Counted from the whole stretch's first letter, positions 124 to 63,131 are shown. The stretch is DNA of 63,131 nucleotides, filler included, from Rozella allomycis CSF55 (GCA_000442015.1; 13 parts of 13 records of this genome joined end to end with filler, not necessarily neighbours in it), one strand, 5' to 3'. Numbers and translations are program-made. Notes: generated by a model not told the origin, from the sequence alone.

Positions 124-1534
124 ATGTCTGAAGAAAAAATTGACGAACAAGAAAACTTTTCTGAAGAGGAGTATTCTGGAGAAGAGGAAGAATTTCATAC
201 ATTTGAGGAGGAGAAGACTGGAGATTCTAATTTAAGTGCCGCTGAGAAAAAGAGAAAGTATAAGGAATTAAAAGAATCTAGAAAAAAGCATAAGCCAAAT
301 TATGAAGAAATATCTAAGGCTAAAAAATTATGGGAAATTGCCAGGAATACCAAAGTAGATGAAAAAGAAAGAGATGAAGCTATGAGTGAACTTGTGTCCA
401 CTATTAAAGGAAAACTTGGTGATGTAAAAAATATTTTTCCTGTAAATAAGATAAGTTTGAAAAGAGATGCGTCAAGAATTATACAAACATGTCTAAAGCA
501 AGGGACGCCAGAACAGAGATTACTAATTGCTTCAGAATTGAAAGGCAGCTACGTTAGTCTCTCTATGAATATGTATAGCAAGTTTATTGTCACTAAAGTT
601 TTAAATTATTGGTAAACTTTTGATGTTGTAATTGTAGCCCTTCTATGAGAAATGACATTGTAAATGAATTTCGTGGACAAATTGTAAAGTTGATAAAACA
701 TAAAGATGCCAGCAGCGTTATCGATGAAATTTTTCAAGTTTATGCTAATGCTTCACAGAAATTAACTTTGATTGAAGAATTTTTTGGATCTCAATTCATT
801 ATTTTGAAAAAGATTGATAAATCTTTAACTGTGGAGAAACTGTTTGAAAATGAGCCTAACAAAAGGGATGTCATAATGAAACATATGGGAACCACTTTGC
901 AAAGCATTGTGAATAAAGGATCTCTCCAATTCGCCTTGGTTCATCGAGTTCTCCATGATTTTCTTCTCTATGCCACTCCTTCTGAAGCAAAGGATTTGAT
1001 TGAAATGTTGAAAGAAATTGTGTTGGCTGAGCTTGTCCACACTAAGGAGGGAATGTTTGTGGCCCTTTGCGTTTTAGCCCAAAGCGAGGCCAAACAGCGC
1101 AAGTCAATTGTCAAAGGCCTTAAACAACATTTGGAGAAAATTTTGCTCGATGAATTTGGCGCTATATTTGTAGTTGGTGTTTTTTATCTCATGGACGATA
1201 CAGTCCTAGTCTCCAAAGCTATCCTTTTGGTATTTTCATCTTTAACATTTCATTTAGGATTATTTTCATAAATTGGATGATTTTATTGTTAATGAAAATG
1301 CCAGAAAAATCATTTTGTATTTGTTATGTGGATCAAGTCCAAAATGTTTTTCTCCTTTTGTCATTCAAACCCTGGAAAAAGTTTCCAAATTTTCCAAATC
1401 CAAAAAGGATTTGAAGCAAAAAGAAAAAGAACTTTTAGACTTTTCTAAGCCTTACTTGGTCGATTATTTCAAGAAAAAAGGTGAAAGTTTGTTAACTAAG
1501 GATTCAATTTCATCTTTTATTGCTCAGAATATTC
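124..1534 (+). CDS. PUF6: Pumilio/Puf-A family RNA-binding protein (3' truncated by gap)
   Basis: Acidic/basic N-terminus then PUF-like repeats (KRDASRIIQTCLKQG, KHKDASSVIDE, ELVHTKEG); mini-introns 424-450, 612-637, 1230-1257. Confidence 0.9.
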
Positions 1535-1634
1535 NNNNNNNNNNNNNNNNNNNNNNNNNNNNNNNNNNNNNNNNNNNNTTAATTAATTAANNNNNNNNNN
1601 NNNNNNNNNNNNNNNNNNNNNNNNNNNNNNNNNN
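1535..1634. other. Artificial contig spacer N-TTAATTAATTAA-N (stops in all six frames); recurs near 3413, 6515, 9033, 28916, 30663, 38500, 44414, 52164, 55902, 57804, 61738
   Basis: Identical 12-mer centred in ~44-nt N runs at every gap. Confidence 0.97.
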
Positions 1635-2866
1635 GACATCTAAGGATTGTTCGAAATGATTCACATAAGGATTTGGAAGTACCATCATCTTTTTCAGAAC
1701 TTGGATTTTCATAAACCATACTTGGTTTTATACTTGGATCAAAAGGTGTAACAGCAGTAATACAATCATTCATCTTTGGTCTCTTTAGTAAATTTGAAAC
1801 ATAACTTTTCTGATGCAGTATAATAGTCTTATTGTGTCTATTTCGAAATAACTCTAACCCTAAAACATATTTGCATTCACCCAAATCAGACATTTCAAAT
1901 CGTTTCTTCANATCATTCATCTTTGGTCTCTTTAATAAATTTGAAACATAACTTTTCTGATGCAGTATAATAGTCTTATTGTGTCTATTTTGAAATAACT
2001 CTAACCCTAAAACATATTTGCATTCACCCAAATCAGACATTTCAAATCGTTTCTTCAGAGAATTAATTATTAAATTTATTGTTTTTTCCTTTCCTGCAAT
2101 AATCAAATCACCAACATATAGACTAATAAATCCAACAATTTGATTATTAAACCACGTTTAATATAGATACAAGGATCAGAACTAGCTGGAGAGTAACCTT
2201 CACTTTGTAAAAATTTGTCAATCTCACAATTCCAAAGATGCGGCGCTTGTCTTAAACCATAAAGTGATTTCTTAAAAAGACAAACCTTGTTATTGCCTAA
2301 AGTAATTCCTAAACCAACTGAACCATCATATACACGGGTTTGTCTAAAGGTGCAAGAAGAAAAGTAGTTTTCACGTCAAGTTGATGATTTCAAGATCTTG
2401 GGTTGCTGCGATCGTGAGGAGCATGCGAATAGAAACCATATGCGAAACAGGAGCCGAAAGAGAATCTTCTTAAAAATGAACATTAGCAACTTGAGAATAT
2501 CCTCGAGCAACAAGTCTAGCTATATATCGAGCAATAGAACCATCTGTATTTCTTTTAATTCGAAAAACCCATCTATTTGATATTGGAACTTCACCTATAG
2601 GTAAATCAGTAATGTCCCAAGTTGACTTCTTATTAAAGCTACTTAGTTCTTTATTGACAGCTTCTTATCCACAAAGATTCATCAAGTCGTCCTTTGATTT
2701 CAGTATAATGTTCCGGAACTTCAGGAAGCCTATATAGAGTACAAGCAGAGTAATCAACCTTCTTACATGTTCTTCGACTATTTTCTGGAAGGATATTTTT
2801 GAAAGAGATATCAGAATATATTNTCATTACACCTCCCTCTTCTATTTCTGTTTCATCGACAAACAC
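1635..2866 (-). mobile_element. Degenerate Ty1/copia LTR-retrotransposon pol (RT) fragment
   Basis: FEMSDLGECKYVLGLE, LKKSLYGLRQAP, KARLVARG, LYVGD (mutated YVDD); frameshifts. Confidence 0.9.
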
Positions 2867-4269
2867 CTAACCCTAAACCCTTTGTTTAAATACCCTATTA
2901 CTTCATTTGTAGAGGATATTGAATTAACGTAGTGTTCTGACACTTTTACTTGAATTTAAGCCTGGTAAACGAAAAGAACTTTCAAAAAATCTTGTAAAAA
3001 GATTTCATGTTTGTTTAAAGACCTTATTACTTCAGAAACACATTATTTGGTAGACTATTGCTGTAATCTTTATTGCCCTTGAACAATGCATATTTTGTGG
3101 TACGAGTCATAAGGCTATCATTAACGGTTGAGTTTAAGGCTGGATAAACAATCAGAACTTTCAAAAAGTCCGCATCATAAAGAAATTTTAGATAAGTGAA
3201 GAGATGTCTAGGCCTTATGTAAACTTCCATAGGTTTAAAGAAATCATCATTTCGAGGATCATGTAATTTTCAGTTTAACAATTTAGAACCAAAATTTATA
3301 TTCTCTAACTCTAGAGCTATAGANAGTTTAACAATTTAGAACCAAAATTTATATTCTCTAACTCTAGAGCTATAGATATATGGAATTCTCTCTTGTCACG
3401 TTTCGCATCTGCTNNNNNNNNNNNNNNNNNNNNNNNNNNNNNNNNNNNNNNNNNNNNTTAATTAATTAANNNNNNNNNNNNNNNNNNNNNNNNNNNNNNN
3501 NNNNNNNNNNNNNTTGTAAAAGGTTAAACTTTTTATACGACTGAATAAGTAATATTTTTGTACATTACACGAATTTATCTGCGATAGCTTATCAAACCCG
3601 GTGGCGACATTTTTTTCGATATTTCCAAAAAAAGGGTTCAAATTCAGTTNTCAATCGACTCAGAAGTCTGATTTGCAATCTTCTGTGGTCTCTTACGAGG
3701 CCTGAAAGAATTTTTGTTAGCAAATTACCTTTAATTTTTTATCTAGCTCACGAAATTCTTGGCTCTGTGGTTTCAAATCGCAGTCCATTTCCTGCAGGCA
3801 CTCAATGCGAAGTGCTTCGTCTCGTTTGTAAAAGGTTAAACTTTTTATACGACTGAATAAGTAATATTTTTGTACATTACACGAATTTATCTGCGATAGC
3901 TTATCAAACCCGGTGGCGACATTTTTTTCGATATTTCCAAAAAAAGGGTTCAAATTCAGTTCAATTTTCTTAATGTTGATTTTTCCGAAACAAAGTTTTA
4001 GGTAAAAATCGGTTTCAAAATTACCTAGAAAATTTACGAAAAACCGGATGAACTGCCTGCTCCCCTGGGACGACTTGGAAATTTCCAAAAATATTGGCTC
4101 CCCTGATCTTCAGTTTTACCAATTTAATCTTTAGTATTACTTATTTTAGCAATTTGGGTAAAGGCTTAAAGCGTTAGTACAATCTCAACACTAAACGTTT
4201 GATATTCACAGTCACTTAAATAAAGGATTGTCTAAAAGTTTATACAATTATTTTATTTTTAATATTAAT

Positions 4270-5279
4270 CTATTTTTTAATTCTTCCATTTCTTTCCAGA
4301 GTAGGATCAACAAGATTCCACGCCCCACGCTCTTCACTGTTTAATGCAGGATTAGGGAAAGTATCTTTCAAACCTCCCAATGATGTATACCTTTGTGTAA
4401 CAAACATTCACATTACCCCAAATTATACAAAGAGCAATATGGAACATTGTATTTTCTGAGGTATTCCCACACGTCATGATAACTCCAGTCAAGAATTGGA
4501 TTGACTCTCATAAAGCGAGGCCAATCTTTATCAGTCAATTGAAATTCTTGTAGATCTTTTGAATAAGGGTCTGTTCGCCTGGTCCCGATAAAAATCGCTT
4601 TACAATCAAGTAACTGTTGTTTAAATGAAGAGAGAGCTTGTTTCATTTTTGCCGCGATTCTGTAAACTTTAATTGGATATCTGTCTATCTGGAAGTATGA
4701 AAGATTACCTGAATGCGCACCATTTCACAAACAACTCAACTTGGGGAAATGATTCATCACATGATACATATAATGCCGGAATCATTACGCTGTCGATGTT
4801 TAGCGTTTGAAGAAAGCTGTAGAGGAGGTGTAGGAGAACGGTGCAATCTTTGCCGCCATTGAAGCTAATAGCTAATTCGCTGAATCTAACAACATAAATG
4901 GGTCATTATACTTGTATCTTTCAAACGCAGTTTCCAATATACTTAATGTATGCCTAATTCTCTCATTCAATTGACTTGATAAAATTTCACTCGCCAATTG
5001 TGGTGGTATGCCATGTTCGTTTACAGCTCTAACATCAATGATATCTTCCACAGAAATATATTTTAACAAATATTCCACTTGTTTAGAGCCGTAAGAGATA
5101 TATGAATTTGTAATATACACATACAAAGGCTTTTCTATTCCTAATCGCTCGCTGCATTGTTTTTCCATGAGATCCGTAACTTCTTTTTTGTCGCATAATT
5201 CTAAAGTTAGTCCATTTGATTCTTTTAATTTGATTATAGCATCTTTCTCAATCAAAATGCAAGTGACCACTTGCGCCAT
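4270..5279 (-). CDS. FAD1: FAD synthetase (PAPS-reductase-like family) with N-terminal extension
   Basis: Spliced AISFNGGKDC, GTRRTDP, RVNPILDWSY, GYTSLGG; three 26-28 nt introns. Confidence 0.9.
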
Positions 5280-10153: not shown

Positions 10154-13100
10154 CTATTTATAATCGGTGACAGGAGGGCAAGTGCAAATTACATTTCGGT
10201 CCCCAAAAGCATCATCCACACGACCTACGCTTGGCCAAAATTTAAAACGCTTCAGATTTTCAACAGGATAGGCAGCTTGATCTCTGGTATATGAATGATT
10301 CCAATCTGTTTTAATCAATGATTCAATTGTGTGAGGTGCATGAACTAGCACGTTATCGTCCTTCGGAACGACGCCTCTTTCAATAGCTTCAATTTCTCTT
10401 CTAATACCTACCATAGCTTCAATCAATCTATCAAGTTCTTTCTTTGATTCGCTTTCTGTTGGCTCAATCATGAGAGTATTTGCTACTGGCCAACTCATTG
10501 TAGGACTATGAAATCCATAATCCTGTATTGTATTTAATAAAGAATTTACTTGCAGGCGTTTAGCTATATCAATCGCTTCTATCCCACTTGATTCAAAGAA
10601 GGGACGACAATCCACAATAAATTCATGTGCAACAAACCCCCTTTCGTTTGAGTATAAAATTCTATAATAGTCTTTTAAACAAGACGCCAAATAATTTGCA
10701 TTTAAAAGAGCGTATTGAGTGGCTAGCTTTAATCCCTGAAATCCCATCAAGTGCAAGTAGCACCAAGATATATTCAATATTGAACTTGAGCCGTAAGGAG
10801 ATGCTGAAACCGGTCCAATAGACGTTTTATTATTAGAAAAAGTCATTGGATGACTTGGTAAGAAAGGAATTAAATGCTTCTTTACACATATAGGACCCAT
10901 TCCCGGACCTAGTTAAGACAGGAAAATTGTGGTACCTCCACCCCCATGAGGAATGCAGAACGTTTTATGCAAGTTTAAATGACATACATCAAATCCAAGA
11001 TCACCAGGGCGGACAATACCCACTTGAGCATTCATGTTTGCGCCGTCCATGTAGACCTGACCACCAAACCCATGAACTATACTAATAGCTTCAAATAAAG
11101 TGTTCTCAAAGACGCCAAATGTCGACGGGTATGTAATCATCATTGCGCCTAGATTTTCTTTGTGTTTTTCAGCTTTGGACTTTAAATCTTTAAGGTCAAG
11201 ATTTCCGTTAGAGTCACAGAGAATTGGAACAACTTGAAACCCAGACATTGCTTTTGTTAATAATAGATTAAATTTACCTGCGGATGCAGGATTTGTCCCG
11301 TGAGCGCTAACTGGAATTAAGCAGATGTTTCTATGAGCATGCCCATTGTTTTTATGATATTCTCTTATGGTCATTAAACCAGCGTACTCGCCTTGAGCTC
11401 CACTGTTTGGTTGGACTGAAACTCCATCGAATCCTGTCAAATATGCCAACTTGTCTTCTAATTCTTTGATCATTTGATGATAACCCAACGCTTGATTATC
11501 GGGAACAAAGGGATGAATATTGGCAACTTTAGGCCATGTGACCGGGATCATTTCAGCTGTTGCGTTCAATTTCATTGTGCAGGAGCCAAGCGGTATCATA
11601 GAATGGACAAGAGATAAATCTTTGGATTGCAATCTGTGAATATAACGAGTGATTTCTGTTTCTGAATGATATGTATTAAAAACAGGATGTTGTAAATAAT
11701 CATCAGGTCTCAATTTTGGTATTTTACATTCAACATTTTCAATTGAAAGATTTAAACTTCCAACGCTGCTTTCATTCTATTTAGAATTCTGAATACTCTT
11801 ACAGCAAAACAATAAAGAATGTCTCTCAAATCGCTTTCCATGGTAGTCTCGTCAAGAGATATTCCAATTGAATCATTGTAATATTTGAAATTTATTCCTT
11901 TTTCTTCAGCTCTATCTTTAATTCCTTTCACGTTCGCAACTTCAACTTTGATTGTATCGAAAAATTGATCATTTTCTATCGTCAAACCCAAGTATTTTAA
12001 AGCATTGTACAAAACAACTGCTTGTTTATGCACTTTAAGAGCGATTTCTTTTAAACCCTATTATAAAAACTTTTTGGAATTACTTTGGGCCCATGATACA
12101 CAGCGTACATGGCAGCCATGTTGGCCAGCAGTGCTTGTGAGGTACAAATATTAGATGTAGCCTTTTCCCTCTTAATATGCTGCTCCCTTGTTTGTAATGT
12201 CAATCTATATGCCACGTTGCCGTTTGAATCCTTTGAAACGCCTATAAACCTTCCAGGCATCTTTCTTTTAAAATTGTCCTTGACAGCAAAAAAGGCAGCA
12301 TGAGGTCCTTTTAAATATTCTTTCAATGTATTACCGCCGTATCCTAGTGGTACACCAAATCTCTGTGAATTTCCAAAAGCAATGTCACATCCCTGCCTTC
12401 CTGGAGGCTCAAGTAACGTCAAAGATAATAAATCAGTAGCGCATGCGATAAATGCGCCATTTTCATGGACATGATTTGATATTTCATTTATTGAACATAT
12501 TTTCCCATGTGTGTCTGGATATTGTATTAACACTCCAAACACTTGGGAAAAATCAATACTCTGAAACTCTTTAACAAAATCCTTAATTAAAACAGTCACC
12601 CCGAGGGGTTCTGCTCTTGTTTTGACACATGCTATTGTCTGCGAATGACAATTTACGTCAATTATGAAAGTCTTTCTATTTTTTGACGAATTCAAAAACA
12701 CATTCATGGCCTCGGCGGCTGCAGTTCCTTCATCTAATAATGATGCATTTGCGACAGGCAATCCTGTTAAATCGCAAACCATTGTTTGAAAGTTTAGCAA
12801 GGATTCTAGTCTTCCTTGAGATATTTCAGGCTGGTATGGTGTGTATTGGGTGTACCAGGCCGGATTTTCCATTATATTTCTTAATATTACTTTTGGTGTA
12901 TGACAATTTGAATAACCCATTCCAATGAAAGATCGAAATACCTTATTCTTATCCATAATTTTATCAAGACATTTTAGCAACTCGTTTTCTTCAACTCCCT
13001 GAAAAGTATTTTCAGAATCAAACTTTGATTTGGAAAGTATTTTGCTCGGTATTACCATTTCTACCAAATGGTCCAAAGAGTCACATTTCACAGTTTTGAG

Positions 13101-13196
13101 CATTTCTTTAGTGTCGATTGCATTTAATGGGCCTATATGTCGCTTTACGAATGAGGAAAATGACCTTTTGAATAAGTGGCTGACAATTAGCCTCAT
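10154..13196 (-). CDS. GCV2: Glycine dehydrogenase (glycine cleavage P protein), mitochondrial
   Basis: [47 protein letters not shown]; presequence-like start; six 26-27 nt introns. Confidence 0.97.
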
Positions 13197-13253
13197 GTTT
13201 AGCCCAGGAGGCAAATCAAAACAAAAATTTAAAATAAAAACGACATTTATTAA

Positions 13254-14689
13254 TTAACTGTTCACTGAAACTTAGACTAAATGAATGACTCGTACTGTAA
13301 CTGTTGACATCAATTTTATCTGGAAGCTCTGTAATGTTAACCTCGAATCTTTCTTGAACTTGATTGAGAATTTGTGAATCTTCAGCACTAGAAACGAAAG
13401 TGACTGCAAGACCTTTGGTACCGAAACGACCAGCTCTACCAACCTTACATATATTCATCTGAATCTGCTTACTCTGTGAAGATAAGAATCAGCGCTATCT
13501 GGCATATCGTAGTTAATAACAATGTTAACTCTTTCAATATCGATTCCTCTGCCGAAAATGTCAGTACAGACCATAATTCTCTTCTTAAAGTCTTTGAATG
13601 TTTGATAACGCGAAATACTTTGGTTTTGTTTTGACTATTTGGTTACCTAAGATTTTGTCAATAAAAATGAAAAACTTACCGTTCTTCTTGTGGCAAACTG
13701 CCGTGAATGCAAATTGAAGGAAAGTTGCATTCAACTAAAAGTTTGTCAAGCTCATTAGCACGTGCGACAGATTTTACAAAGATGACAACTTGATTAAATT
13801 CTAACGCATCAAGCAAATCATTGAGCTTTTTGTTCTTTTCATTTTCTTGCAGTTTGACGTAATGCTGTTGAAGACCATGCAGTGTTAATTTAGCTTCATC
13901 ATCAACAAAAATTTCCAATGGATTTTGCATAAACTTTTTGCAAATAACCCGAATTTCTTTGTTTAGAGTCGCTGAAAACATCATGCATTGCTTTTCATGA
14001 GGTGTTTGACGGAAAATATCTTGAACATCACGTCTCATATCTTTTAATATTACATATTTATAATTACCCAAAGATTCAAGCATTTTATCACATTCGTCCA
14101 AGACAAACATTTTGACCTTCTTAAGGTTGAGGGCTTTATCACGAATAAGCGCCAAAATACGACCAGGGGTACCAACTACAATATGTGGACAGTCTGATTT
14201 TAATTGTTCCATGTTTTGTTTGATGCTAACACCTCCATAAAAAACTGCTGTCTTCACGTCAGGCATGTATTTGGTGAACCTAATGTACTCATTCTTGATT
14301 TGGAATGCAAGCTCACGAGTATGGCACATAATCAAAACAGAAACTTGGTCCTTGACAGGTTCCAATTGTTGAAGTGATGCCAAGACAAACACAGCCGTTT
14401 TCCCCATACCGGATTTAGCTTGACATAGCACGTCCATTCCAAGAACGGCTTGTGGGATACATTCTTGTTGGACTTCAGAAGGATGCTCAAAACCGCAGTC
14501 AACAAGCGCTCTCATAAGTTCTGGCTTTAGCAAAAAGTCACGAAAACCGGAAGAGTGGATACCAACGTACGATCCCTTTTTGACTTCTCTATCCGCAGCA
14601 GATGTGTTATCTCTAAGTTTCGCTACTTTTGTTGGAAGAGGAATAGCTTCATCTTCTTCAAAGTCTACTAAGTCGTCGGCAGCGCTCAT
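13254..14689 (-). CDS. SUB2: DECD-box RNA helicase UAP56/Sub2
   Basis: [22 protein letters not shown]; spliced C-terminus YMNS*. Confidence 0.97.
13618..13679 (-). other. 62-nt intron made of two abutting mini-introns (33+29 nt)
   Basis: GTAAGT...TTAG|GTAACC...AAAG; removal restores [14 protein letters not shown]. Confidence 0.75.
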
Positions 14690-42375: not shown

Positions 42376-42409
42376 AATGCTACAAAGAAATTTCCAAAAT
42401 TTCGGAATG

Positions 42410-45761: not shown

Positions 45762-48700
45762 ATGATGCATCTTACACCAGGATTATCAAAATCGCGCAGT
45801 CGTTTGGACTTGTTTTCTTCGCAGGACATTCCGCATGTGCAAAAGAATCAAGTGTCGAGACGCAACGGTAACAAGACTTGACAATTGAAATTAGGTAATA
45901 TTCAGAGTAATTTAAGAATATAGGTAATACTTTGCTGTTAATAAACATAGGTAAGAGTGATATTTTTATCCGGTATAGGTACAATTTCATACTAAATCAT
46001 TATAGGTGCCGTGTTGGGTCGTAATACGATTCTGAAGACTGATCATTTCCACAAGGGAATAAATTTGGATTTGAGTGTACTGTTGCAGGGAGCGCCTAAT
46101 TTCCGGCAGACAGAGTTGAATATCTATGGGGTAGCGCAGCCGACGACTGTAGGGCTCGCATCTATAATGTCGTTGCTTGAATGCCGCCCTGAAGACCATA
46201 TGCATAGTAATCCCAGTGAAAACGGGCATAATTCACTTAATAGCGGGAGAGAACATGTTCATAGTGCGAGTGAAAATGCGAATGTGTCGAATGCAAATAA
46301 AAACTTTGNAGATGTGGGTGATGAATTGCCCAAGTTGACCAATGCGAGTAGTGTTTATGAATAAAGTATATCTAATACTCTTCATTCATCTTGCCTTTGT
46401 TTTGTATTTTGGCGGTATAATTCTCAAATTGAAATGTGGCGTTAACCAATTCGGGCAAGTTGAAAATTTCCAATGATGCATCTTACACCAGGATTATCAA
46501 AATCGCGCAGTCGTTTGGACTTGTTTTCTTCGCAGGACATTCCGCATGTGCAAAAGAATCAAGTGTCGAGACGCAACGGTAACAAGACTTGACAATTGAA
46601 ATTAGGTAATATTCAGAGTAATTTAAGTATATAGGTAATACTTTGCTGTAAATAACATAGGTAAGAGTGATATGTTTATTCCATATAGGTAAAATTTTAA
46701 TACTAAATCATTATAGGTGCCGTGTTGGGTCGTAATACGATTCTGAAGANAATATAGGTAATACTTTGCTGTTAATAAACATAGGTAAGAGTGATATTTT
46801 TATCCGGTATAGGTACAATTTCATACTAAATCATTATAGGTGCCGTGTTGGGTCGTAATACGATTCTGAAGACTGATCATTTCCACAAGGGAATAAATTT
46901 GGATTTGAGTGTACTGTTGCAGGGCGCGCCTAATTTCCGGCAGACAGAGTTGAATATCTATGGGGTAGCGCAGCCGACGACTGTAGGGCTCGCATCTATA
47001 ATGTCGTTGCTTGAATGCCGCCCTGAAGACCATATGCATAGTAGCAATCCCAGTGAAAACGGGCATAATCCGCTTAATACTGGGAGAGAGCATGCTCATA
47101 GTGCGAGTGAAAATGCGAATGTGTCGAATGCAAATAAAAGCTTTGGTGTTTTTTCGCAGTCGTGTAGTGATGTGTTTGAATGCAAGAGATGTACGTGGTT
47201 TAATACGCGGGAGGAGCCTGTTGTGTATATTAATGAGAAGCCGTTTGTGTTGCGCGAGTATGATAGCCCGTTTAGGAATATCAAAACGTATAATGGGATT
47301 AGTGCGAGTAGATTGGAGCAGCTGGAGTTGCGTATGAAGGAGGATGTGTTGAAGGAAGCTGAGAGAAACCATGGATTGGTGTTGGTGCATGATGAGATTA
47401 GTAAGAGAGTATTAGTTTTGAGATAGGTGATGGGAAGATTGTGCCTTATTGGGTGTCTGCTGAGCAGGTGAGAACGAGTCGGGAGGTGTTTGAGTGGTTT
47501 ATCCAGCGGGGGTATAGGGTGAGTTATTTTAGGATACCGATCTCCGCGTCGCAGGCACCGAGTGATGAGTATGTGGATGAGTTTGTGAATCGGCTGATGC
47601 GATTGGAGGTGGAGGAGAGTGTTGTGTTTAATTGTGGGATGGGGGTTGGAAGGACGACGTTTAATATGGCGATAGCGTTGCTTGTGAGGCGTATGAAAAA
47701 GGAGGGATTGAAGCATAAAAAGGAGAGTAATTGGAGTGATTGAATGGGATAGATCAAGATGAGGTGAATACGAGGAATATATTGAGGCTTGTGTATATAT
47801 TGGAGCGAGGGTTGAATAGTAAGATGTCGCCTAATTCAGCGATTGAATGGGCGTTGGCGCGTGGGAATTTGATTGACAAGTTGAAGAATGCGATTATGGG
47901 GAATTATCAAGTAAGAGATGGAGGGGAGAATGAAAGGTTATATTGGAGCTGACGAGTGTGTTGGAGAATGGACAATATTTCAAGAGGATTGTTGATGAGA
48001 CGATTAATCAATGTAAGGGTGTTGAAAGAGATTGAAAGGTGATGCTGTGATTAATTTGAGGGAGGATATATTGATGCATAGAATTAGACANAGGGAGAAT
48101 GAGAGGTTATATTGGAACTGACGAGTGTGTTGGAGAATGGACAACATTTCAAGAGGATTGTTGATGAGACGATTAACCAATGTAAGGGTGTTGAAAGAGA
48201 TTGAAAGGCGATGCTGTGATTAATTTGAGGGAGGATATATTGATGCATAGAATTAGACACAATGTGACTGAAGATTCGAGTGTGTTGGAGTTGGGGATTG
48301 GATCATTAGAGCGATATTTTACGTTGATAGCATTTGCAGCGTATTTGGGGGAAAGAGAGTTTAAGAATGGGTTTAGTCGATGGATTAATGAGAGGGCCGA
48401 GATTTGGAAGATGTTGGAGAATTTGAGAAAGAAGGGAGGGTTGTTGAGGTAGATTGATTTGTAGAGTTTAATAGACATTTCAGACCGATAGAAGAGTTGG
48501 GAATATTGAAGGAAAAGACAGAGCAAAACAAGGCTAGTCAAATATCATTGATTGAAGAAGAAACAATTTCAGCTATTAATGTAAGATTTGAATGATTTGA
48601 TTTATGAAGAATAGAAGTGGATCTGTGTTGACTTCGCATACAATATTGAAGATTGATCATTGGGGAATAGATAAGAGTCAAGTGATGATTGTTGGAGCGC

Positions 48701-51700
48701 CAAATTTTAGAAGAGTTGAAGAATTCCCAGTGTATGGAGTAGCGCAGCCAACTGAGAATGGAATCATCAATGTATTAGAGTACATCAAGCGAGAGTTGGA
48801 GTGTGAAGGGGTTGAAGGGGAGGGGGTAGAGGGTGAAGAAGGGGAGGGGGTTAGTGAAGAGGGGGTAGCAATGGGAATAGAAGGAATGATGATTGATGAG
48901 AGAATTCAAACTACTACTACTACTTTCAAACCTCATACTACATTTAAACCCCCTACTAATAAAATAGTTTGGATTAATTTGAGAGAAGAACCAATAATAT
49001 ATATCAAGGGAGAACCATTTGTGTTGAGAGATGAAAAGTATAGTTTGAGAAACATTCAAACATATTCAGGGATTACAAGTGAACGCTTNATTGGAGAGTG
49101 AAGGGGTTGAAGGTGAAGAAGGGGAGGGGGTTGAAATGGGTGAAGAAGAGAGGCTAGCAATGAGAGTAGAAGGAATGATGGTAGATGAGAGAATTCAAAC
49201 TACTACAACTACTTTTAACCCTCATACTACTATTAAACCCCCTACATTTAAACCCCCTAATACTAATAAAATAGTTTGGATTAATTTGAGAGAAGAACCG
49301 ATTATTTATATAAAGGGAGAACCATTTGTGTTGAGAGATGAGAAATATAGTTTGAGAAACATTCAAACATATTCAGGGATTACAAGTGAACGGTTAGAAT
49401 TGTTAGAGATGAGATTGAAGGATGATGTGATAGCTGAGAGTAAATATTATTCTGGTAGAATATTGTTGCATGAAGAAAATGAAAATGAAATTGTAGGGAA
49501 TTGGATTAAATTAGAGAATGGAAATGTAAAAACTGTGAATGAAACATTTAAATCTGAAATTTATGAATTTTCTAAAAAGAGTTTTATTGAATGTGAATTT
49601 TATAGAATTCCATTGACAGCTGAAGAATCACCAGAGCCAAATGATTTAGATTCTATTCTTCAATTGATTGCCAAAATGGATATCCTCAACACCAGAATCA
49701 TCATGTAAACTTTAGTTTTTGTAAAGGTAGGAATTGTCAAGTTGGGCATGGGAGATCTACAATGGGAATGATTGTAGCCATTCTAGTAATCAACTGGATA
49801 AGAAAAGGTATTGAAGGGGGAGTAGAAGTGGGGAGGGTAGAAGTAGAAGGGAATACTACCACAAGTGATACAAGAGATACTACATCTCCCACTACTTCTC
49901 CTACTACTTCTCCCCTTATATCCCCCCTTATAACATCATCACCTGCTATTGTTTATTCATTGTTGAGAGTTATACGAAATGGATTGGAATGCAAAAAGAT
50001 TGTAGATGAAACAATAAACAAATGTTCAATGACTGTCAATCTAAAAACTAAAATTGAAGAATACAAAATAAAAGCAGAAAAAGCAATGGATGAAAATGAA
50101 GCAAGAAGATTAATCATCAGGGGTGTTCAATATTTAAAAAGATATTTCCTTTTAATTGTATTTCAATCTTATTTGGAACAAACTAATGTTAATGCTTTAA
50201 ATGAAATGGAATCATTCAATTGTTGGATTAAAAGACATTTGGAAATTATTAAAATGATGGATGAAATGGAAGAAGCGTCTTCTATTGGCAACATTCAGAT
50301 TCTATCAATGGTTGACTCTGTTCCCCCTGGCGCTGGCATTGCACTAACAACTGAAGTTTTAGAAGTAGTCAAAAACAGAAAAGGTAAGAGATATGTAGTA
50401 GTAGTTATTAGGTAAAAGATATGAAATAGTAGTTATTAGGTAATAGAGTTGAAATAAGCATATAATAGGTAATCAATTACTTTATATTCTATTTCTCTAG
50501 GTAACCACTTANGAAGTTTTATTGAATGTGAGTTTTATAGAATTCCATTGACAGCTGAAGAGTCACCAGAGCCAAATGATTTGGATTCTATTCTTCAATT
50601 GATTGCCAAAATGGATATTCTCAACACCAGAATCATCATGTAAATAAAAGTTATTGTAAAGGTAGGAATTGTCAAGTTGGGCATGGGAGATCTACCATGG
50701 GAANCCTCAACACCAGAATCATCATGTAAACTTTAGTTTTTGTAAAGGTAGGAATTGTCAAGTTGGGCATGGGAGATCTACAATGGGAATGATTGTAGCC
50801 ATTTTAGTAATCAACTGGATAAGAAAAGGTATCGAGGGGGTTGAAGGGGTTGAAATGGATAGGGTTGAAATGGGGAGGGGTGGAGTAGAAGGGGGTAGAG
50901 AGAGAGTAGAAGTAGAAGTAGAAGGGAATACTACCACAAGTAATACACGTGATGCTACTACAAGAGATACTTCACATGTCAATGCTTCATCTCCCACCAC
51001 ATCCCCCACTTCTACTACTTCTCCCACTACTACTACTTCTCCCCTTGTAACATCATCACCTGCTATTGTTTATTCATTGTTGAGAGTTATACGAAATGGA
51101 TTGGAATGCAAAAAGATTGTAGATGAAACAATAAACAAATGTTCAATGACTGTCAATCTAAAAACTAAAATTGAAGAATACAAAATAAAAGCAGAAAAAG
51201 CAATGGATGAAAATGAAGCAAGAAGATTAATCATCAGGGGTGTTCAATATTTAAAAAGATATTTCCTTTTAATTGTATTTCAATCTTATTTGGAACAAAC
51301 TAATGTTAATGCTTTAAATGAAATGGAATCATTCAATTGTTGGATTAAAAGACATTTGGAAATTATTAAAATGATGGATGAAATGGAAGAAGCGTCTTCT
51401 ATTGGCAACATTCAGATTCTATCAATGGTTGACTCTGTTCCCCCTGGCGCTGGCATTGCACTAACAACTGAAGTTTTAGAAGTAGTCAAAAACAGAAAAG
51501 GTAAGAGATATGTAGTAGTAGTTATTAGGTAAAAGATATGAAATAGTAGTTATTAGGTAACCATGAATAGTTTAAGGCATAATAGGTAATCAATTACTTT
51601 ATATTCTATTTCTCTAGGTAACCACTTCACTTTCTTACTATATCAAAGGTAGTGTGTTGGCTTCGTTTACTATTTTAAAGTATGATCACTTTCCAGGTAA

Positions 51701-52163
51701 TTTACTCTCCTCTAACTCTTATAGGATGTCAGAAACTAACATTGAAAGATAGAATTGATGGAGCACCAAATTTTAGAAGAGTTACGCTTAGTTTAAATAG
51801 TTTACGCTTGGATGATATTTCTCATTCTACTTCAATTGAATCTCTTCATAGATCAAATTCATTCAAATTAGACTCAAAATGTTCTTATGTCTATGGCGTT
51901 GGTATGCCCACTCTAGATGGCATCAAGAAAACTTTATTGTTATGCCATTGTGGTCCAAATAATAATAGATCAATCAAATGGTATCTTTTCTCTTGTTTAA
52001 TTTCAAAGGACTTGCTTAAGAGAAGAACCTGTAATTTTCGTAAATGGAAGACCTTTTGTTTTAAGAACTTTTCAAGATCCAGTCTCCAATCTAGAAACAA
52101 CTGGTAAACATTCAGAAATATATTTAAATAGGAATTGTTTGTGAAAGAGTAGAATTGATGGAA
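45762..52163 (+). CDS. Paladin-like multi-repeat PTP-fold phosphatase; overlapping allelic fragments, 3' truncated
   Basis: Three repeats GxVL..TILKxDH/GAPNFR/YGVAQPT/REEP; CX5R loops FNCGMGVGRTT and NCQVGHGRST. Confidence 0.85.
45868..46005 (+). other. 138-nt intron = five abutting GT-AG mini-introns (27,29,27,28,27 nt)
   Basis: AG|GT junctions at 45894, 45923, 45950, 45978; removal gives RRNG|AVLGRNTILKTDHF. Confidence 0.85.
46579..46716 (+). other. Second (allelic) copy of the five-unit mini-intron array (27,29,26,28,28 nt)
   Basis: Internal substitutions/indels relative to 45868-46005 but all AG|GT junctions intact. Confidence 0.8.
50384..50511 (+). other. Allelic copy of the third-repeat mini-intron array (28,28,29,32 nt, fifth unit truncated at n)
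   Basis: Unit 3 differs strongly in sequence from 51557-51585 but keeps 29 nt and GT...AG. Confidence 0.8.
51501..51648 (+). other. 148-nt intron = five abutting GT-AG mini-introns (28,28,29,32,31 nt)
   Basis: AG|GT junctions at 51528, 51556, 51585, 51617; removal gives KNRKG|SVLASFTILKYDHF. Confidence 0.85.
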
Positions 52164-52263
52164 NNNNNNNNNNNNNNNNNNNNNNNNNNNNNNNNNNNNN
52201 NNNNNNNTTAATTAATTAANNNNNNNNNNNNNNNNNNNNNNNNNNNNNNNNNNNNNNNNNNNN

Positions 52264-55200
52264 AGTCGACATAAAGCGACGTTGATTGTGTGCCCGCAAG
52301 TTATATTGTCGCAGTGGGCGGATGAGATTGAATCAAAGGTGAAAGGGTTGAAGTTTATTGTGGCGAGTTGTGTGAGTGGATTGAATTTGGGGAGTGTTGA
52401 TGTTGTGTTGACGACGTATGAGGTGTTGAGGAAAGGGATTCATTATACGTATGGGCCGAGAAGGTTGCGTGGAGGGAGAGTTGTGAATAATTTGAAAAAG
52501 AATGTGTTGATTCAAACAGGTAAAGATGATTGAGGTGAATAAAAAGGTAAGAGAGAGTAAATTGATTGAAACAGAATGGTGGAGGGTTGTGTTTGATGAG
52601 TCACAAATGATAGGAAATCCCAATGCAGTGGCATCAGGTATTGAATGTGAGATTGAATTTAGTAGAATTTGCATCACATTTGAAGATGAAGAATAGATGG
52701 TTGGTGACTGGAACTCCACTAGGCAAAAAGTTGAATGAATTGTGTGGATTTATGAAATTTCTAGAATTTGAGCCACTGAATGAACTTTCACATTTTAGAA
52801 ATTTACTAAACTATTTAGAAAACTCTAAAAATTTAATTTTGTGGAAGAAATTTGAAGAAACGATAAATTTGATATCATCTAGATTGACAAAGAAGATTGT
52901 GAGTGAAGAAGTGGAGTTGCCTGGCCAGAATATGATTGTAGAGAGATTGACGTTTTCCAAAGTGGAGGATTATTACTATAGGGGGATAGTGGAGAGATGT
53001 TTAGAAGAGAATAAAGGCGAAATGGTGAATTGGATGCAGCAATTGAGGCAGGCGTGGTAAATAGAATTTATTTTGAATTAAAAGTGTTCATCCAACGTTG
53101 GGGGAGAGAAACAGTCGAGAGTTTTCAAAGAAGAAGGAAACTTTGAGTTTGAAGAAATGTTTAGAAATTATGATTAAAAATAATGTGAGTGAAAAGGAGA
53201 ATAATGAGAGAAATTTGTGTCAAGAAAAGTTGAAGATTGGGATGGGATTTGAAGTGAAGAATGATATTGAAAATTCATTAAAATTTTATAGAGAAGCGAA
53301 AGAAATTTGTGAAAAGAAGATTCAAGAATTTGATGAGGGGTTAGGAGAAGGGGTTGAGGGGGGGGGTAGAGGGGGTAGAGGTTGAGGGGGTAGAGGGAGA
53401 AGTGAAAGAAGATGAAGTCAATGAAGTCAATGAAGTTAAACTAGATCAAACACTCGATGAAGTAAATGAAGAAGATGCTGGGTGGTTGAAGATGAAGAAT
53501 TGGTTGAATTTACTTTTCCAATGTTACTTTAATATCGCTAGTTTGAAGATTGATGAGAATGAATCGAATGAAATGTTTGATGAAGCAGAAAAGATTAGAA
53601 CCAGGGTATTAAAAATAGCTGAAGATTCAATTGAAAATAAAAAGAGAAATTTAATTAATTTTTATTCAAATGAAAAGATTAAAGAAATTGAATTTAAAAG
53701 TCCAAATTTTGATGAGTTTATTACAAGAGATTATTATAGAACCCTTGAAGTATCTAGAAAAGTTTTAAATGAAATAAAAAAATGCAAAAAAGAAATTTTA
53801 GAAATATTTGAGAAACCCTTGTTTGAAAATTATGAAGAATCTGCAACGTTTCAAGAGAGGGGAAATTTAATTCAAAATTATTATTCAATTCTAATTTCTA
53901 AATTTCAAGAATTATTAAACAGCGAAAATGATGTGATTGACTTTACTTTTATTGAGGGAGTTGAAGAGAGGGAAGGGGGAGAGGGAGAAAGAGGAGAGGT
54001 TGAAAGGGGAGATAGAGAGGGAGATAGAGAGGGAGAAAGTGGAATTAACGTTGAAAGAGAGGTTAGTGTTGGAGTTGACAGAGAAGTAGAAGACCACGTA
54101 GTAATCACTGCTGATGGTCAATTGAAGAGAAAAGATGAACAAGTTCATGAACAAAGAAAAAAGTTTAAACCTAACACGGATTCAAACTCTAGTGGTTCAA
54201 ACACCTTTACAAATAACTTAAAGTGCTTGCCGTTTCATAGATTAATTTTTAATTTTCAACAATTTGTTTTAAAGAAAACTTCAAAAGAAGAAGACGAAGA
54301 AATTTCAGAAATTGATAAAATGAATTCTGAAATTTCTCAAATTGAAATTCATCAAATTAATTCTGAAATTTCTAAAATAAGAAAAGAGTTTGTTAATTAC
54401 ATTAGAGAATACAATTTAATCAACAAAATATTCAATTCTAGAATCATCTATTTCAAACAACTTCAATCTCTATCAGACAAGGTCACTCTGCCTCAAGTTG
54501 ATGACATTGATGACTTTGTCAATCAACTCTTGTTAAACACTCAAAACACTTTTGCTTTAATCAATCAACAAGAAGCCAAAATTAGATATCTTTCAAATCT
54601 TCAACAATTAAATCACAATGATGAAATTTGTGTCATTTGCAGATCTAAATATGAAAATGGTTTATTAACTGAATGTGGAGTAAATTTTATTCTTATTTCT
54701 CATGTAGCATATTGGTTGTACCAAGTGTATGACGGCTTGGATCAAATCTAAAAATAAATGTCCCGTCTGCAACGCTTCAATCAACCAGAAATTCACTCTA
54801 GTCTCAAACAATGAAATCTCTACCAAAAAACCAAAATATCTTCCGCCTCCACAATTCAGCACCAAAATTGATTTTGTTGTTCGTTCCATCCTTCATTTAA
54901 ACAAAACTGATCCCGATGCGAAATATCTCGTATTTTCTGAATGGGATCAAGCTCTCCATCTACTACAGAAAGCTCTATCTTCCCACAACATTAAATCAAT
55001 CAGACTCGAAAGAAAAAACAACGCCGTCCACCAATTCAACGTTGACGATTCAATCAAAGTTTTCATCCTGCACGCCAGAATGCAGAGCGCTGGGTTAACT
55101 CTCACAAGAGCTACTCACGTCTTTCTATTAGAACCATGCTTAAATCCAGCTCTCGAAAAGCAAGCTATTGGTCGAGTTCACAGGTTTGGGCAGAAAAGAG

Positions 55201-57903: not shown

Positions 57904-59860
57904 TCAATGTTGCAGCAAACTTTGGTAGAAGTAGATTCCCCCACAGTTTCTAAAATTATAAGTCAGTTGGAAAACTTAGTAACGCTGGCTGACGTGAAGC
58001 TTCTTAGGCCGATCTTTTCAATGCCTCTGAATATGCTCAAATTGCAGTGGTAAGCTCTTTGAGATATTTGAACGTTCTCAATACCTCGCTTCTGGCAACA
58101 GCCTTGACATCGACCTATATGAATGTATGCGTGGAGCTTAGTGACGATGGACANAGCGGCAAAATGACATTAGAAACTGTAGCATTGGAAAAGAATGGGA
58201 AACTTGTTTGTCAGTTTTGGCTAATGGATGCTAAACTACGAAGCAAATGTATTGTTGAGCAACAGGACTGTCTTTTAAATTTTGATGATCCGCAAAGTAG
58301 AATGAATGTTGATGAAAGTACGGGTACTGAGGAAATTAAATCACTAGGATCTACGACCCCAGATTTTTTGATTGTCTCCGAAGACTATCCACCAAAAGTA
58401 AAATCAACTATTTTTGGAAATCATAGGTAATTACAGAAGAGCCGTTAACCCTGGGCAGATCTTTTGAATTGTTGTTTTCAGAAAAGGAGACAAAGAAACT
58501 TTTAGACGAATGCAGCGTAGTGTTGTAATAGTCTATAGNTGCAGCAAAAATGACATTAGAAACTGTAGCATTGGAAAAGAATGGGCAGATTTAGCTAATG
58601 GATGCTAACATACGAAGCAAATGTATTTTTGAGCAACCGGACTGTCTTTTAAATTTTGATGATCCGCAAAATAGAATGAATGTTGATGAAAGTACGGGTA
58701 CCGAGGAAAATAAATCACCGGGATCTACGACCCCAGTTTTTTTGATTTTCTCCGAAGACTATCCACCAAAAGTAAAATCATTTATTTTTGTAACTCATAG
58801 GTAATTACAGAGCCTGTAACCCTAATTACAGAGCCGTTAACCCTGGGCAGATATTTTGAATTGTTGTTTTCAGAAAAGGTGACAAAGAAACTTTTAGACG
58901 AATGCAGCGTAGTGTTGTAATAGTCTATAGTTCTGTGTAGCCACTGTATTCAGATAAGCGAAATGGTTACCCACAAAGTACTGTTCGTACTTAATGCGCA
59001 GTGCTGCAATAGTGGCTATGGACTATCAGCAAGGTTACGACATTGTCATTCCATTGCTGCTTCCATCTGAAACATTCACGGCATACAATACATAAAAATT
59101 AGAGGAAGGCACAATTGGTGCTTTTGTGATTCAGGTAAAAAACAGAAAAGACGAATTTAAGACAATTGACGATACCTACCATTTAACAGACCATTACTGA
59201 AGAATCGGCTTAGATTTAGGCGACGTTACTTTTTTTGTTAACGTTAACTTTTAGGTAAGTATAAAGTGTTTAAATATGGTAACATTTAGATATCTTTTAT
59301 ATAAANGACGACATTGTCATTCCATTGCTGCTTCCATCTAAAACATTCACGGCATACAATACATAAAAATTAGAGGAGGGCAAAATTTGTGCTTTTGTTA
59401 TTCAGGTAAAAAAACGGAGAAGACGAATTTAAGACAATTGACGCTACCTACCATTTAACAGACCATTACTGTAGAATCAGCTTAGATTTAGGCGACGTTA
59501 CTGTTTTTGTGAACGTTAACTTTTAGATAAGTATAAAGTGTTTAAATATGGTAACATTTAGATATCTTTTATATAAAGCCAACAAGGTTACCAGACAACA
59601 GACAAGAATTTCACCATCTATTTTCCAGTTCAAGGTAATAGGAATACATCTAACATTTTCACACGGATTGATCCTTATTTTGTATTCCATGTGTGATTCA
59701 CATAAACTATTGTTCCGTAAAATCATAAGTCCAAGAAGTCTCATCACACCTGAAGCACCTGTGTGTCTGGTTTCTTCAAGCGTCGATATGTCTGTGTTGG
59801 ATTATTTCAAAGACGATACGTTACCCGTTTATTCTAAAATAGATAATATATATTCATGAA
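57904..59860 (+). pseudogene. Pseudogenised restriction-endonuclease-fold (Crinkler-associated type) gene fragments, duplicated
   Basis: PLTLGRYFELLF..IVLCSHCIQ..RSAAIVAMDYQQGYDIVIP..AFVIQVKN with stops and frameshifts. Confidence 0.55.
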
Positions 59861-61837: not shown

Positions 61838-62567
61838 TCATTAAATATAATACATACCGATATAAAGCCAGAAAACATTCTTTTTATACACGATCAATTC
61901 ACCGTTGAGCCAAACTCATCGGTAAATATATCATTGCAATTTTTTTAAGACACTCGGTCATTACAGATTGATGAGCAATACCAAGATAGTACTAATAGAT
62001 TTTGGAACTGCAGTATACAACAGTCAACACAATTATCATAGCATTGTATCCACTCGCTACTATAGACCTCCCGAAGTTATTCTCAGTAAACAATTTTATT
62101 TAGATAAAATGAGCTCGGATGGACATTTGCGTGTGATATCTGGGCTGTTGGTTGTATTTCAGTTGAATTATTTACTGGAAAATTGTTGTTCAAGACACAT
62201 GACGATATAGAACATTTGGCACTAATGGAGAAAATTCTTGGCCCATTTCCAAAAGAGATGATAGAATGCGTGGATCAATCTTCATTTAAGAATTTCTTTA
62301 CTAAAAAATACAAGGTTAATAGATCTGCCTCAAAAAATGTTGAAGAAAAATACGTAAACAATGCAAAGACGATTCAAGTAAGGGTTAAGAGTCAAGAAGA
62401 TAACAAAGGAACTTATAAACCCAAAGATAAAATTTGAATACCATTTTCTTGATTTGATTAAACAATTGCTAAACTATAATCAAACCAGGCGAATATCTGC
62501 GTTGGCGAGTATATCTCACCCTTTTTTCCATTCGTCAACATCTTTTTCATCCAAAAATTTTGAATAA
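61838..62567 (+). CDS. LAMMER/CLK family protein kinase (5' truncated)
   Basis: IHTDIKPENIL, IDFG, VSTRYYRPPEVIL, EHLALMEKILG. Confidence 0.9.
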
Positions 62568-62668
62568 ACTTATCTACAAATTTAACCTAATGCAGTTTCA
62601 AATTTAATCATAACAAAGATATTTTGAAATGTTTTACTGAAATCCCGTTTAGGAATTTTGTGATTCCG

Positions 62669-63131
62669 ATGGTTTCAGAAGCGTCTAAATGTCCGGTGAA
62701 TCATAACCAGGAAATTAAATCTTGTCCTATTGATCACAATCAGAATGAATCAATAAACCCATTAACCCAAATGCCATATTCGAGCACTTTGGAGGCAGCA
62801 TCATCTGTGACGGCAGAAGATTTGTCTAATTCGCGTGAAATGTCTACAATTCCCAGAGGAGATACAGAAAAATTGTGGGAATATCCATCGCCTCGAATGT
62901 TTTATAATGCATTGCGAAGAAAAGGCTACGAAACAGATCCCGCAGATGTTGATATGATGGTCGATGTTCACAACTTTTTAAATGAGGGAGTTTGGGACGA
63001 GGTGATGAAATGGGAGAAGAAATTCCATTGGTAATTTGTTGTGAATTAATTTGATAGTGATTGTGAATCACCAGAGTTGGTAAAGTTTAGAGGAAGAGCG
63101 AAAGATTTAACACCAAAAGCAAAGTTTTATA
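62669..63131 (+). CDS. Holocytochrome c synthase (heme lyase), runs off the window
   Basis: CPV/CPI heme-regulatory motifs, REMSTIPR, WEYPSPRMFYNALRRKG, HNFLNEGVW. Confidence 0.92.

Follow-up and report, generated by a model that had tools for sequence, protein, structure and literature searches.

Tiny introns in a 63-kb stretch of Rozella allomycis DNA and a possible length measure in their splicing

The stretch of DNA analysed here (the window, 63,131 bases, ~34% G+C, standard genetic code, 1126 N in scaffold-type gaps) carries eukaryotic genes interrupted by introns of about 26-33 nucleotides (nt), and this report deals with how such introns may be recognized. Its open reading frames (ORFs) contain the housekeeping domains GcvP, UAP56-type DEAD helicase, GNT-I, family B polymerase, PP4C and CapZ-beta, and further encode SGT1, MED14, a SNF2/RING protein and a paladin-like PTP-phytase repeat protein (Pfam). 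No tRNA gene was found in the window, and an Rfam scan gave neither a small nuclear RNA gene nor any other RNA family. For a GcvP exon the top match, at 98% identity, is "glycine dehydrogenase [Rozella allomycis CSF55]", followed by chytrids at ~60%; the CSF55 record and the window agree in 904 of 914 residues, with ten scattered substitutions. Judging from this one gene, the window is nuclear DNA of the parasitic fungus R. allomycis, or of another isolate, haplotype or very close relative, and its G+C content agrees with the 34% figure in a passage of PMC8042348. A dicyemid or myxozoan source, considered on account of the 27-nt introns published for those animals, is ruled out by the 98% match. 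A metagenome scan with the GcvP exon returned 80 loci, all 46-54% identical and uninterrupted, and hence no Rozella relatives.

The mini-introns and the position of their 3' ends

Introns were verified by alignment to homologs, by continuity of Pfam coordinates across exons, or by continuity of conserved motifs. For the alignments we used a protein-to-DNA spliced aligner in which an intron costs the same at every length, with non-Rozella homologs as queries. We obtained 43 verified units, all of 26-33 nt (nine of 26 nt, 13 of 27, ten of 28, six of 29, two of 30, and one each of 31, 32 and 33). The window therefore shows the narrow class below 35 nt typical of ultra-short-intron genomes, with 43 of 43 units inside it and three longer sequences that are chains of units. 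Beyond the homolog-aligned genes, Pfam coordinates followed exon by exon are continuous over 11 junctions. An initial annotation, made from the sequence, had proposed that almost all introns measure ~26-33 nt and usually have neither a pyrimidine tract nor an obvious branch consensus; the verified set bears out both points.

Gene-finder controls point the same way within limits. With a flat length prior, 13 GT..AG introns were placed in the 25-29 nt bin, against 0-5 for 11 decoy dinucleotide pairs, and GT..AG was similar to the decoys in every other bin. A self-trained gene finder settled at 110 introns of 24-34 nt among 136 in all, a result not used as evidence of number: at near-zero intron cost the finder becomes unspecific, decoys reaching 24-144 "introns" of 24-33 nt against 123 for GT..AG, so the raw count was set aside. 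Model-free counts of ORF bridging gave merely ~2-fold enrichment. Among bridging candidates that start with GTA, those ending in AG number 25 against 4.5 expected, and no other dinucleotide is clearly enriched. When an RNA run under the same species label was compared with 38600-44413, it yielded no intron joints, only pieces that matched the conserved PP4C core at 90-95% and apparently derive from other organisms. Protein and frame continuity nevertheless lead us to regard the tiny introns of the window as confirmed.

All 43 verified units start with GTA, 35 of them with GTAA (A at position 4). Their 3' ends are AG in 41 and TG in two, with A or T at -3 in 41 and A at -4 in 26. Interiors are AT-rich and C-poor (A 36%, T 41%, G 11%, C 12%), without a pyrimidine tract. 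If the weak A at -4 and at position 23 is set aside, the information outside GTA(A) and (A/T)AG in 69 gene-finder introns is at most ~0.2-0.4 bit per position; the 17 homology-verified units reach ~0.6 bit at other positions, values inflated by their small number. No strong branch motif appears in the position tables, only the weak A at -4 and at position 23. The latter, counted from the 5' end, is present in 28 of the 43 units and is enriched in all length classes (81, 67, 54, 67 and 57%).

U12-type introns carry an extended 5' consensus, (A/G)TATCCTT, and a TCCTTAAC branch site. The U12 consensus is absent from our position tables, where position 4 is A in 35 of 43 units, and removal of the introns leaves gap-free conserved protein by the homologs and Pfam coordinates. 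By these signs, the introns of the window are ultra-short U2-type GT-AG introns.

Where the 3' site falls can be described by a simple distance rule, in which it is the first AG with its G at a distance of T nt or more from the 5' G. With T=26 the rule fits 40 of the 43 verified units, with T=25 it fits 38 and with T=27 it fits 33; in the homology-only set it is right in 16 of 17. Its three misses are the two TG introns and a GNT-I intron with tandem CAG/TAG acceptors, for which 26 and 29 nt are not distinguishable. The units contain 22 unused internal AGs that end at 12-25 nt, three of them at 23-25, and nine units use an AG at exactly 26. Unit lengths end at 33 nt, a far narrower spread than if the next AG were met at random, so there would be an upper limit too, or strong selection for one. 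These counts support the view that the 3' splice site acts as though counted off from the 5' end.

Long introns as chains of units, and TG acceptors

Three independent verified intervening sequences exceed 34 nt (62, 138 and 148 nt), and they are exact chains of two, five and five GTA..AG units; none of the three is without the unit pattern. When their interiors were shuffled, the rule tiled them in 487, 0 and 0 of 200,000 trials, respectively. Successive units abut at AG/GTA junctions, equivalent to zero-length exons, of which there is one in the UAP56 gene and four each in the 138-nt and 148-nt sequences, called arrays A and B.

Array A interrupts the paladin-like phosphatase gene in phase 1, between exon 1 (MMHLTPGL..QVSRRN) and exon 2 (AVLGRNTILKTDHF..GAPNFRQ), and only removal of all 138 nt joins the 38 open codons upstream to the 100 downstream. 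Its units are alike only at their ends and give no tandem-repeat call by TRF. The frame across array B likewise closes only on removal of all five units, and the exon that follows resembles the one after array A (xVLxxxTILKxDHF), marking a paralogous segment. Array B opens with 2-3 units that are 87-91% alike and recur with a 28-nt period, so units can duplicate; the later ones share ends only. Each array also has a diverged duplicate nearby. Boundary letters are identical in 25 of 25 positions in both comparisons, with interior differences at 9 of 113 positions for array A and 17 of 123 for array B; taken together, 50 of 50 boundary letters were kept and 26 of 236 interior letters changed. 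The array A duplication may be allelic or an assembly effect (123-nt repeat).

We also searched both strands for chains by applying the unit rule repeatedly, with 200 block shuffles as control. Maximal chains of two, three, four, five and six units number 8, 1, 1, 3 and 1. Chains of at least three units total six, against 0.11 expected per shuffle, and none of at least five units arose in the 200 shuffles. Of the 1024 start/end motif pairs compared, none has a longer chain than GTA/AG; the remaining pairs whose chains reach three units or more are low-complexity repeats, or shifted or reverse-complement images of these arrays. Several candidates were discarded. The two-unit chains 4365-4416 and 20040-20092 were rejected, their second unit being coding, and 22673-22727 and 30529-30596 look like chance. 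The long introns proposed by the gene finder (131-393 nt) do not tile at all, and those inspected were all gene merges, skipped exons or transposon remnants.

Two verified introns end in TG. In PP4C the TG site was chosen by 8 of 8 homologs; the next AG, at 36 nt, would shift the frame, and an AG-only model is forced into 14- and 36-nt pseudo-introns that lower the alignment by ~98 units (1121 vs 1219 with P0142) and destroy the GDxHG motif. In the DNA polymerase zeta gene, the first AG at 26 nt or beyond lies at 58 nt, and its use would delete a motif. Here the exon 20433-20546 matches DNA_pol_B 232-270 over all 38 residues, and the exon 20249-20404 begins at 271 from its residue 1. Neither TG intron has an AG in the 26-34 nt interval. 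The initial annotation had read the longer introns as unit-length pieces and had listed TG among the acceptors; the first reading holds in all three independent verified cases (13618-13679, 45868-46005, 51501-51648) and the second in these two genes.

Gene-by-gene introns and other features of the window

The features are collected in Table 1.

Table 1. Introns, unit chains and exonic look-alikes in the window. Lengths in nt are in parentheses; a slash marks a junction of units or exons, with Pfam profile positions on its two sides where a domain is named.
Feature	Position	Strand	Details
UAP56/SUB2 helicase gene	13297-14689	-	Introns 14041-14067 (27), 13618-13679 (62), 13444-13472 (29)
UAP56 two-unit intron	13618-13679	-	13647-13679 (33, GTAAG..TTAG), then 13618-13646 (29, GTAACC..AAAG); junction AG/GTA
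Array A, paladin-like phosphatase gene	45868-46005 (138)	+	27+29+27+28+27, each GTA..(T/A)AG
Diverged duplicate of array A	46579-46716	+	27+29+26+28+28; partial third copy 46732-46839
Array B	51501-51648 (148)	+	28+28+29+32+31; between ..VVKNRK(G) and 48-nt exon 51649-51696 (SVLASFTILKYDHFPG)
Duplicate of array B	50384-50532	+	28+28+29+32+32, one N
Intron after the 48-nt exon	51697-51724 (28)	+	..DHFP(G) joined to CQKLTLKDRIDGAPNFRRV; PTPlike_phytase begins in next exons
GT..TG intron, PP4C	42209-42234 (26)	-	..APVT joined to ICGDIHGQF, phosphatase metal-binding motif
GT..TG intron, DNA polymerase zeta	20405-20432 (28)	-	..KLKFEK joined to VYQPCVLMSKKRYCGF
GcvP (glycine dehydrogenase) gene	10157-13136	-	Introns 12308-12334 (27), 12058-12083 (26), 11777-11802 (26), 11251-11277 (27), 10909-10935 (27), 10523-10549 (27); 15 non-Rozella homologs
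PP4 catalytic subunit (PP4C) gene	41266-42375	-	Introns 42209-42234 (26, TG), 42091-42117 (27), 41776-41803 (28), 41697-41725 (29), 41573-41602 (30), 41424-41450 (27), 41317-41344 (28)
DNA polymerase zeta (REV3-like) gene	19528-24227	-	Introns 21107-21134 (28), 20548-20573 (26), 20405-20432 (28, TG), 20219-20246 (28), 20066-20092 (27); sequence reading and Pfam
Paladin-like gene intron, first phosphatase domain	47401-47426 (26)	+	PTPlike_phytase 1-66 / 75-158
Paladin-like gene intron	49705-49730 (26)	+	PTPlike_phytase 130/139
GNT-I intron	18886-18914 (29 or 26)	+	Tandem CAG/TAG acceptors; GNT-I 289/292
SGT1-like gene introns	25540-25566 (27), 25967-25996 (30)	+	CS 33/39, SGS 49/50
F-actin capping protein beta introns	43114-43140 (27), 43435-43460 (26)	-	F_actin_cap_B 193/200, 104/106
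MED14-like intron	39632-39657 (26)	-	Med14 98/103
SNF2/RING gene intron	54680-54707 (28)	+	..LLTECG joined to HIGCTKCMTAWIKSKNKCPVC; RING finger completed (TECG/HIGCTKC)
FAD-synthase/PAPS-reductase-like intron	4391-4416 (26)	-	Frames; PAPS_reduct match on upstream exon
Purine-rich candidate intron	47911-47936 (26)	+	GTAAGAGATGGAGGGGAGAATGAAAG, GTAAG..AAAG; gene-finder "strict" set
Look-alike after intron 4391-4416	4365-4390 (26)	-	Encodes YTSLGGLKDTFPNP (GYTSLG..); stays unspliced
Look-alike after polymerase intron 20066-20092	20040-20065 (26)	-	GTACAAATC..CTCCAG; encodes YKSNTLPP; must stay unspliced
Look-alike directly after array B	51649-51680 (32)	+	Encodes part of SVLASFTILK
Ambiguous SNF2-like site	52504-52574	+	Units 52520-52546 and 52547-52574, or one 31-nt GTG..GAG intron 52504-52534

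Support differs from gene to gene. In PP4C, 8 of 8 full-length homologs agree on all seven introns, with 248-263 identical of 303-304 aligned residues. In the UAP56 gene the introns of 27 and 62 nt were found with 8 of 8 homologs and that of 29 nt with 7 of 8, and the global alignment to P0421 is gap-free at all three junctions. Four GcvP introns were supported by 15 of 15 homologs and one by 14 of 15. At the third, in a poorly conserved spot, a donor giving 26 nt was taken by 5 of 15 and an alternative 20-nt donor by 10 of 15. Pfam coordinates run on across the GcvP exons (GDC-P 266/268 and 341/342, GcvP2_C 58/59), and in the polymerase gene across those of DNA_pol_B (53/55, 230/232, 270/271). 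The public CSF55 GcvP record has the same six introns as the window gene, so such introns are already in public annotation. That record (914 amino acids) begins MVIPSKIL, and the window ORF and homolog alignments reach further upstream (13058-13253, minus strand); the CSF55 model probably lacks the mitochondrial presequence and a conserved N-terminal stretch.

At the GNT-I intron 18886-18914 the distance rule gives 26 nt and the gene finder took 29. The exon 18182-18883 (plus strand) of this gene contains an in-frame, stop-free 30-nt GTAAG..GTTAG segment encoding KLIVLVKLLG and is ~12 residues over the Pfam profile span; the segment may be a further intron hidden within the open frame. Comparable stop-free 27-nt introns lie within the long ORFs of GcvP and UAP56. 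Two candidate introns of a Reeler-domain gene (minus strand) are longer than any verified unit, at 15233-15272 (40 nt) and 15718-15758 (41 nt), and the 41-nt one has no AG before its end.

The purine-rich example cited in the initial annotation (47911-47936) is a candidate intron of the gene-finder strict set, in which the frame depends on removal and at least 20 codons are open on each side. The coding strand of its gene is strongly G-rich. GC skew is +0.30 to +0.38 at 45000-54000 (plus strand); there the paladin-like and SNF2/RING genes have a coding strand rich in G and poor in C, and their introns are biased alike.

Elsewhere in the window, broken-frame pieces of Ty1/copia-type reverse transcriptase (Pfam RVT_2) at 1582-2592 and 29221-30054, both on the minus strand, are degenerate retrotransposon copies, which the gene finder joined through false long introns. 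A long gene for a Glu/Arg/Lys-rich repeat protein with several SH3 domains lies at 34575-38029 (minus strand); the long antisense open frames there are an artefact of the repeat. The fused protein P0388 was discarded as not a Rozella gene model. Local tandem duplications of 92-97% identity occur on the plus strand at 45740-47160, 47924-48259, 49645-51532 and 58119-58920. They include 123-nt and 169-nt repeats, a paladin-like domain exon present twice and a small gene present twice, and several adjoin single N or N-runs; they may be joined haplotypes of a draft assembly or true recent duplications.

Recognition of the introns and comparison with known systems

Exons also contain segments that obey the distance rule. 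In 5010 nt of homology-verified exons from the three best genes there are 50 GTA, of which 13 give pseudo-introns of 26-33 nt, against 16 true introns. Four intron ends directly abut an exonic GTA..AG look-alike, which remains unspliced necessarily in three cases and on the favoured reading in the fourth (SNF2-like). In the polymerase gene, for instance, the exon 19528-20064 has its residue 1 matched to DNA_pol_B position 375. At the SNF2-like site, the SNF2-rel_dom match covers 118-144 at 15.9 bits under the single-intron model vs 126-144 at 11.9 bits under the two-unit model; a single 31-nt intron is favoured, and the two-unit chain is doubtful.

Compared with pseudo-units, true units have a lower interior G+C (23% vs 42%) and more often carry A at position 4 (70% vs 22%) and A/T at -3 (89% vs 56%); their lengths, unlike those of pseudo-units, are concentrated at 26-30 nt. 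A simple leave-one-out score separated 63 of 73 true units from 30 of 36 pseudo-units. We infer that true units are distinguished from exonic look-alikes partly by their AT-richness, the A at position 4 and the A/T at -3. In the gene-finder-derived exon set GTAA occurs 49 times vs 85 in codon-shuffled exons (z = -4.7), a depletion that is only suggestive; its reverse complement TTAC is also low (72 vs 98). Over both strands of the window, 645 GTA..AG look-alike units were counted vs ~976 in block-shuffled sequence, a deficit that hints at a general avoidance of intron-like words. As for the idea, put forward in the initial annotation, that introns are defined mainly by GT plus a fixed distance, the distance does explain the choice of 3' site (40 of 43), but it is insufficient alone, as the exonic pseudo-units tell.

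On balance, these are probably length-measured mini-introns, with the long introns as exact chains of units. A U2-type spliceosome at its steric minimum would locate the 3' site by how far it lies from the 5' one, probably with the aid of a branch adenosine kept near position 23, taking the first AG within ~26-33 nt and tolerating TG where AG is absent. If it could not span more than ~34 nt, that is one unit, long introns would have to be removed unit by unit, as abutting mini-introns with zero-length exons, and their exact tiling would be a prediction of the same rule applied repeatedly. Longer intervening sequences would then persist only as chains of complete, independently removed mini-introns, in arrays able to grow by unit duplication. 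We give even chances to the stricter proposal that the Rozella spliceosome is length-gated as such, excising only ~26-33 nt, counted from the 5' splice site, that end in AG or else TG, with every longer intron obliged to be a tandem of autonomous mini-introns that are removed independently and multiply by duplication. It would be an intron architecture for which the searchable literature offers no description in any eukaryote.

The long introns might instead be spliced in one ordinary step, the 62-148 nt being removed whole through one branch point near the 3' end, with the units as an unused historical trace of tandem duplication. Unit duplication does happen, as the alike first 2-3 units of array B and of its copy tell (87-91%, 28-nt period), yet the units of array A and the later ones of array B share only their ends. 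Moreover, the diverged copies kept all 50 boundary letters while 26 of 236 interior letters changed, and no verified long intron is free of the unit pattern (0 of 3). Single introns take the first AG at 26 nt or beyond in 40 of 43 cases; the same would be expected of an internal AG at that distance, and we consider one-step splicing unlikely. Recognition could also be anchored at a degenerate branch site near the 3' end, the first AG after it being taken and the 26-nt ruler reflecting selection for minimal length. The A at -4 (26 of 43) and A/T at -3 (41 of 43), together with TAAC/TAAT-like words near the 3' end of several introns, are what such anchoring would leave, and U2-dependent recognition has been argued for animals with ultra-short introns (PMC13644364). 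The lower limit is, however, sharp when counted from the 5' end, with AGs at 23-25 skipped and nine units at exactly 26; the A at position 23 is enriched in every length class; and, in the 69 gene-finder introns, motifs longer than one letter stay below 0.5 bit. The 43-77 introns at hand are too few to separate 5'- from branch-anchoring statistically, and on the listed grounds we find branch anchoring rather improbable.

Finally, the TG acceptors could be broken alleles or base errors, and the arrays could have been produced by a draft assembly that contains local duplications. The 1126 N, the single-N calls, the local tandem duplications beside N and the ten of 914 GcvP residues that differ from CSF55 speak for an artefact. 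The two TG sites are nonetheless independent, lie in otherwise intact, highly conserved genes and both fall at 26-28 nt. Arrays A and B are N-free, their flanking frames close only on removal and their copies differ, and the UAP56 double intron sits within an N-free stretch of 8.9 kb. Such an artefact strikes us as very improbable.

Several points weigh against length-measured splicing by units. Used alone, the distance rule predicts too many introns: 36 pseudo-units fall in 9318 nt of verified exons. Chains of two units are no commoner than in the block shuffles (8 observed vs 9.4 expected), and the eight comprise one verified, two disproved, one doubtful, two chance-like and two unverified duplicates. 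Multi-unit arrays come only from one paladin-like gene (two independent, plus possible assembly copies) and from UAP56, and a unit pattern that is wholly historical would agree with the recent duplication seen in the first 2-3 units of array B. The 40- and 41-nt candidates of the Reeler-domain gene, if real, would not tile and would take single units past 34 nt. ORF-bridging candidates show no excess of TG (5 vs 5.9 expected; 12 in another test, like other dinucleotides), so TG use would be rare, a fallback. The two TG cases could be base errors or alleles, though two independent base errors at exactly the TG letters seem unlikely. Boundaries at 11 verified junctions were taken from a gene finder trained with a peaked length prior. 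The sample is 63 kb of DNA, from which splicing and its order are read indirectly.

If length-measured splicing by units is true, the persistence of long introns solely as chains of complete units would reveal a maximum length besides the minimum, and Rozella would be a fungal model for distance-based choice of the 3' site. It would also explain why gene finders mis-model such loci, and some public records may be truncated or split; it further suggests that introns grow by unit duplication. The question of how a spliceosome finds introns too short for the textbook signals is the one left open at the end of a 2026 paper on ultra-short introns in animals (PMC13644364).

Ultra-short introns of narrow length and GTA..AG form are known from several lineages. 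Passages of the relevant papers give ~25 nt for Paramecium and Nyctotherus, 15-16 for Stentor, 16-17 for mikrocytids, a median of 27 for dicyemids and 22-27 for myxobolids, and describe such classes in ciliates, mikrocytids, nucleomorphs, dicyemids and myxobolids (PMC13644364, PMC6543705, PMC5014332, PMC10245619). Rozella shares with these genomes a class below 35 nt, signals reduced to GTA...AG and the lack of a pyrimidine tract. Its A at position 23 is like the A enrichment of myxobolids and Dicyema, where a weak run of A lies farther from the AG in longer introns (PMC13644364). In the passages at hand, these papers do not list Rozellomycota (fungal), and we met no mention there of long introns made of tandem units, of a first-AG-at-26 rule or of TG acceptors. 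For Rozella itself, two ~30-nt introns in S23 of R. allomycis are described without the 5' and branch motifs of Encephalitozoon cuniculi introns (passage of PMC6349667), intron density is put at ~2.5 per kb (passage of PMC8476143), and the lowest fungal intron median is given as 29 bp, for a species that the passage does not name (PMC8042348). The searchable literature returned no description of a 26-nt threshold, unit arrays or TG sites in Rozella, and the literature on tandem or abutting introns, zero-length exons and fungal recursive splicing no such Rozella case. Tiny Rozella introns were already known; the length gate with unit arrays appears to be new.

In recursive splicing, long introns of Drosophila and human carry AG/GT ratchet points, or zero-nucleotide exons. 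The unit chains have in common with them a 3' site juxtaposed to a 5' site inside the intervening sequence, so that stepwise removal is possible. In Drosophila and human, however, the segments are of kilobase size and are removed 5' to 3' by regeneration of the 5' site, whereas in Rozella each segment is a complete intron of 26-33 nt, the whole spans 62-148 nt, and any order of removal would be workable. The stwintrons of filamentous fungi, as described in a passage of PMC6616335, are likewise complex intervening sequences that need consecutive splicing. They are nested, an internal intron interrupting a splice signal of the outer one; the Rozella units, in contrast, are complete and abut with uninterrupted signals, and removal of any one leaves complete units. 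The TG acceptors have a counterpart in human U2-dependent GT..TG introns, which use the major spliceosome; there, according to a passage of PMC2374985, TG is an alternative beside an AG, whereas the Rozella TG is the sole frame-keeping acceptor and stands at the measured distance. Closest in descent are the Microsporidia, the sister lineage of Rozella, and these splicing features would bear on splicing reduction in that lineage. Introns of E. cuniculi, at 23-52 nt (PMC6349667), are similar in size to those of Rozella, but Microsporidia have few of them, with extended 5' and branch motifs, whereas Rozella combines ~2.5 introns per kb (PMC8476143) with minimal motifs.

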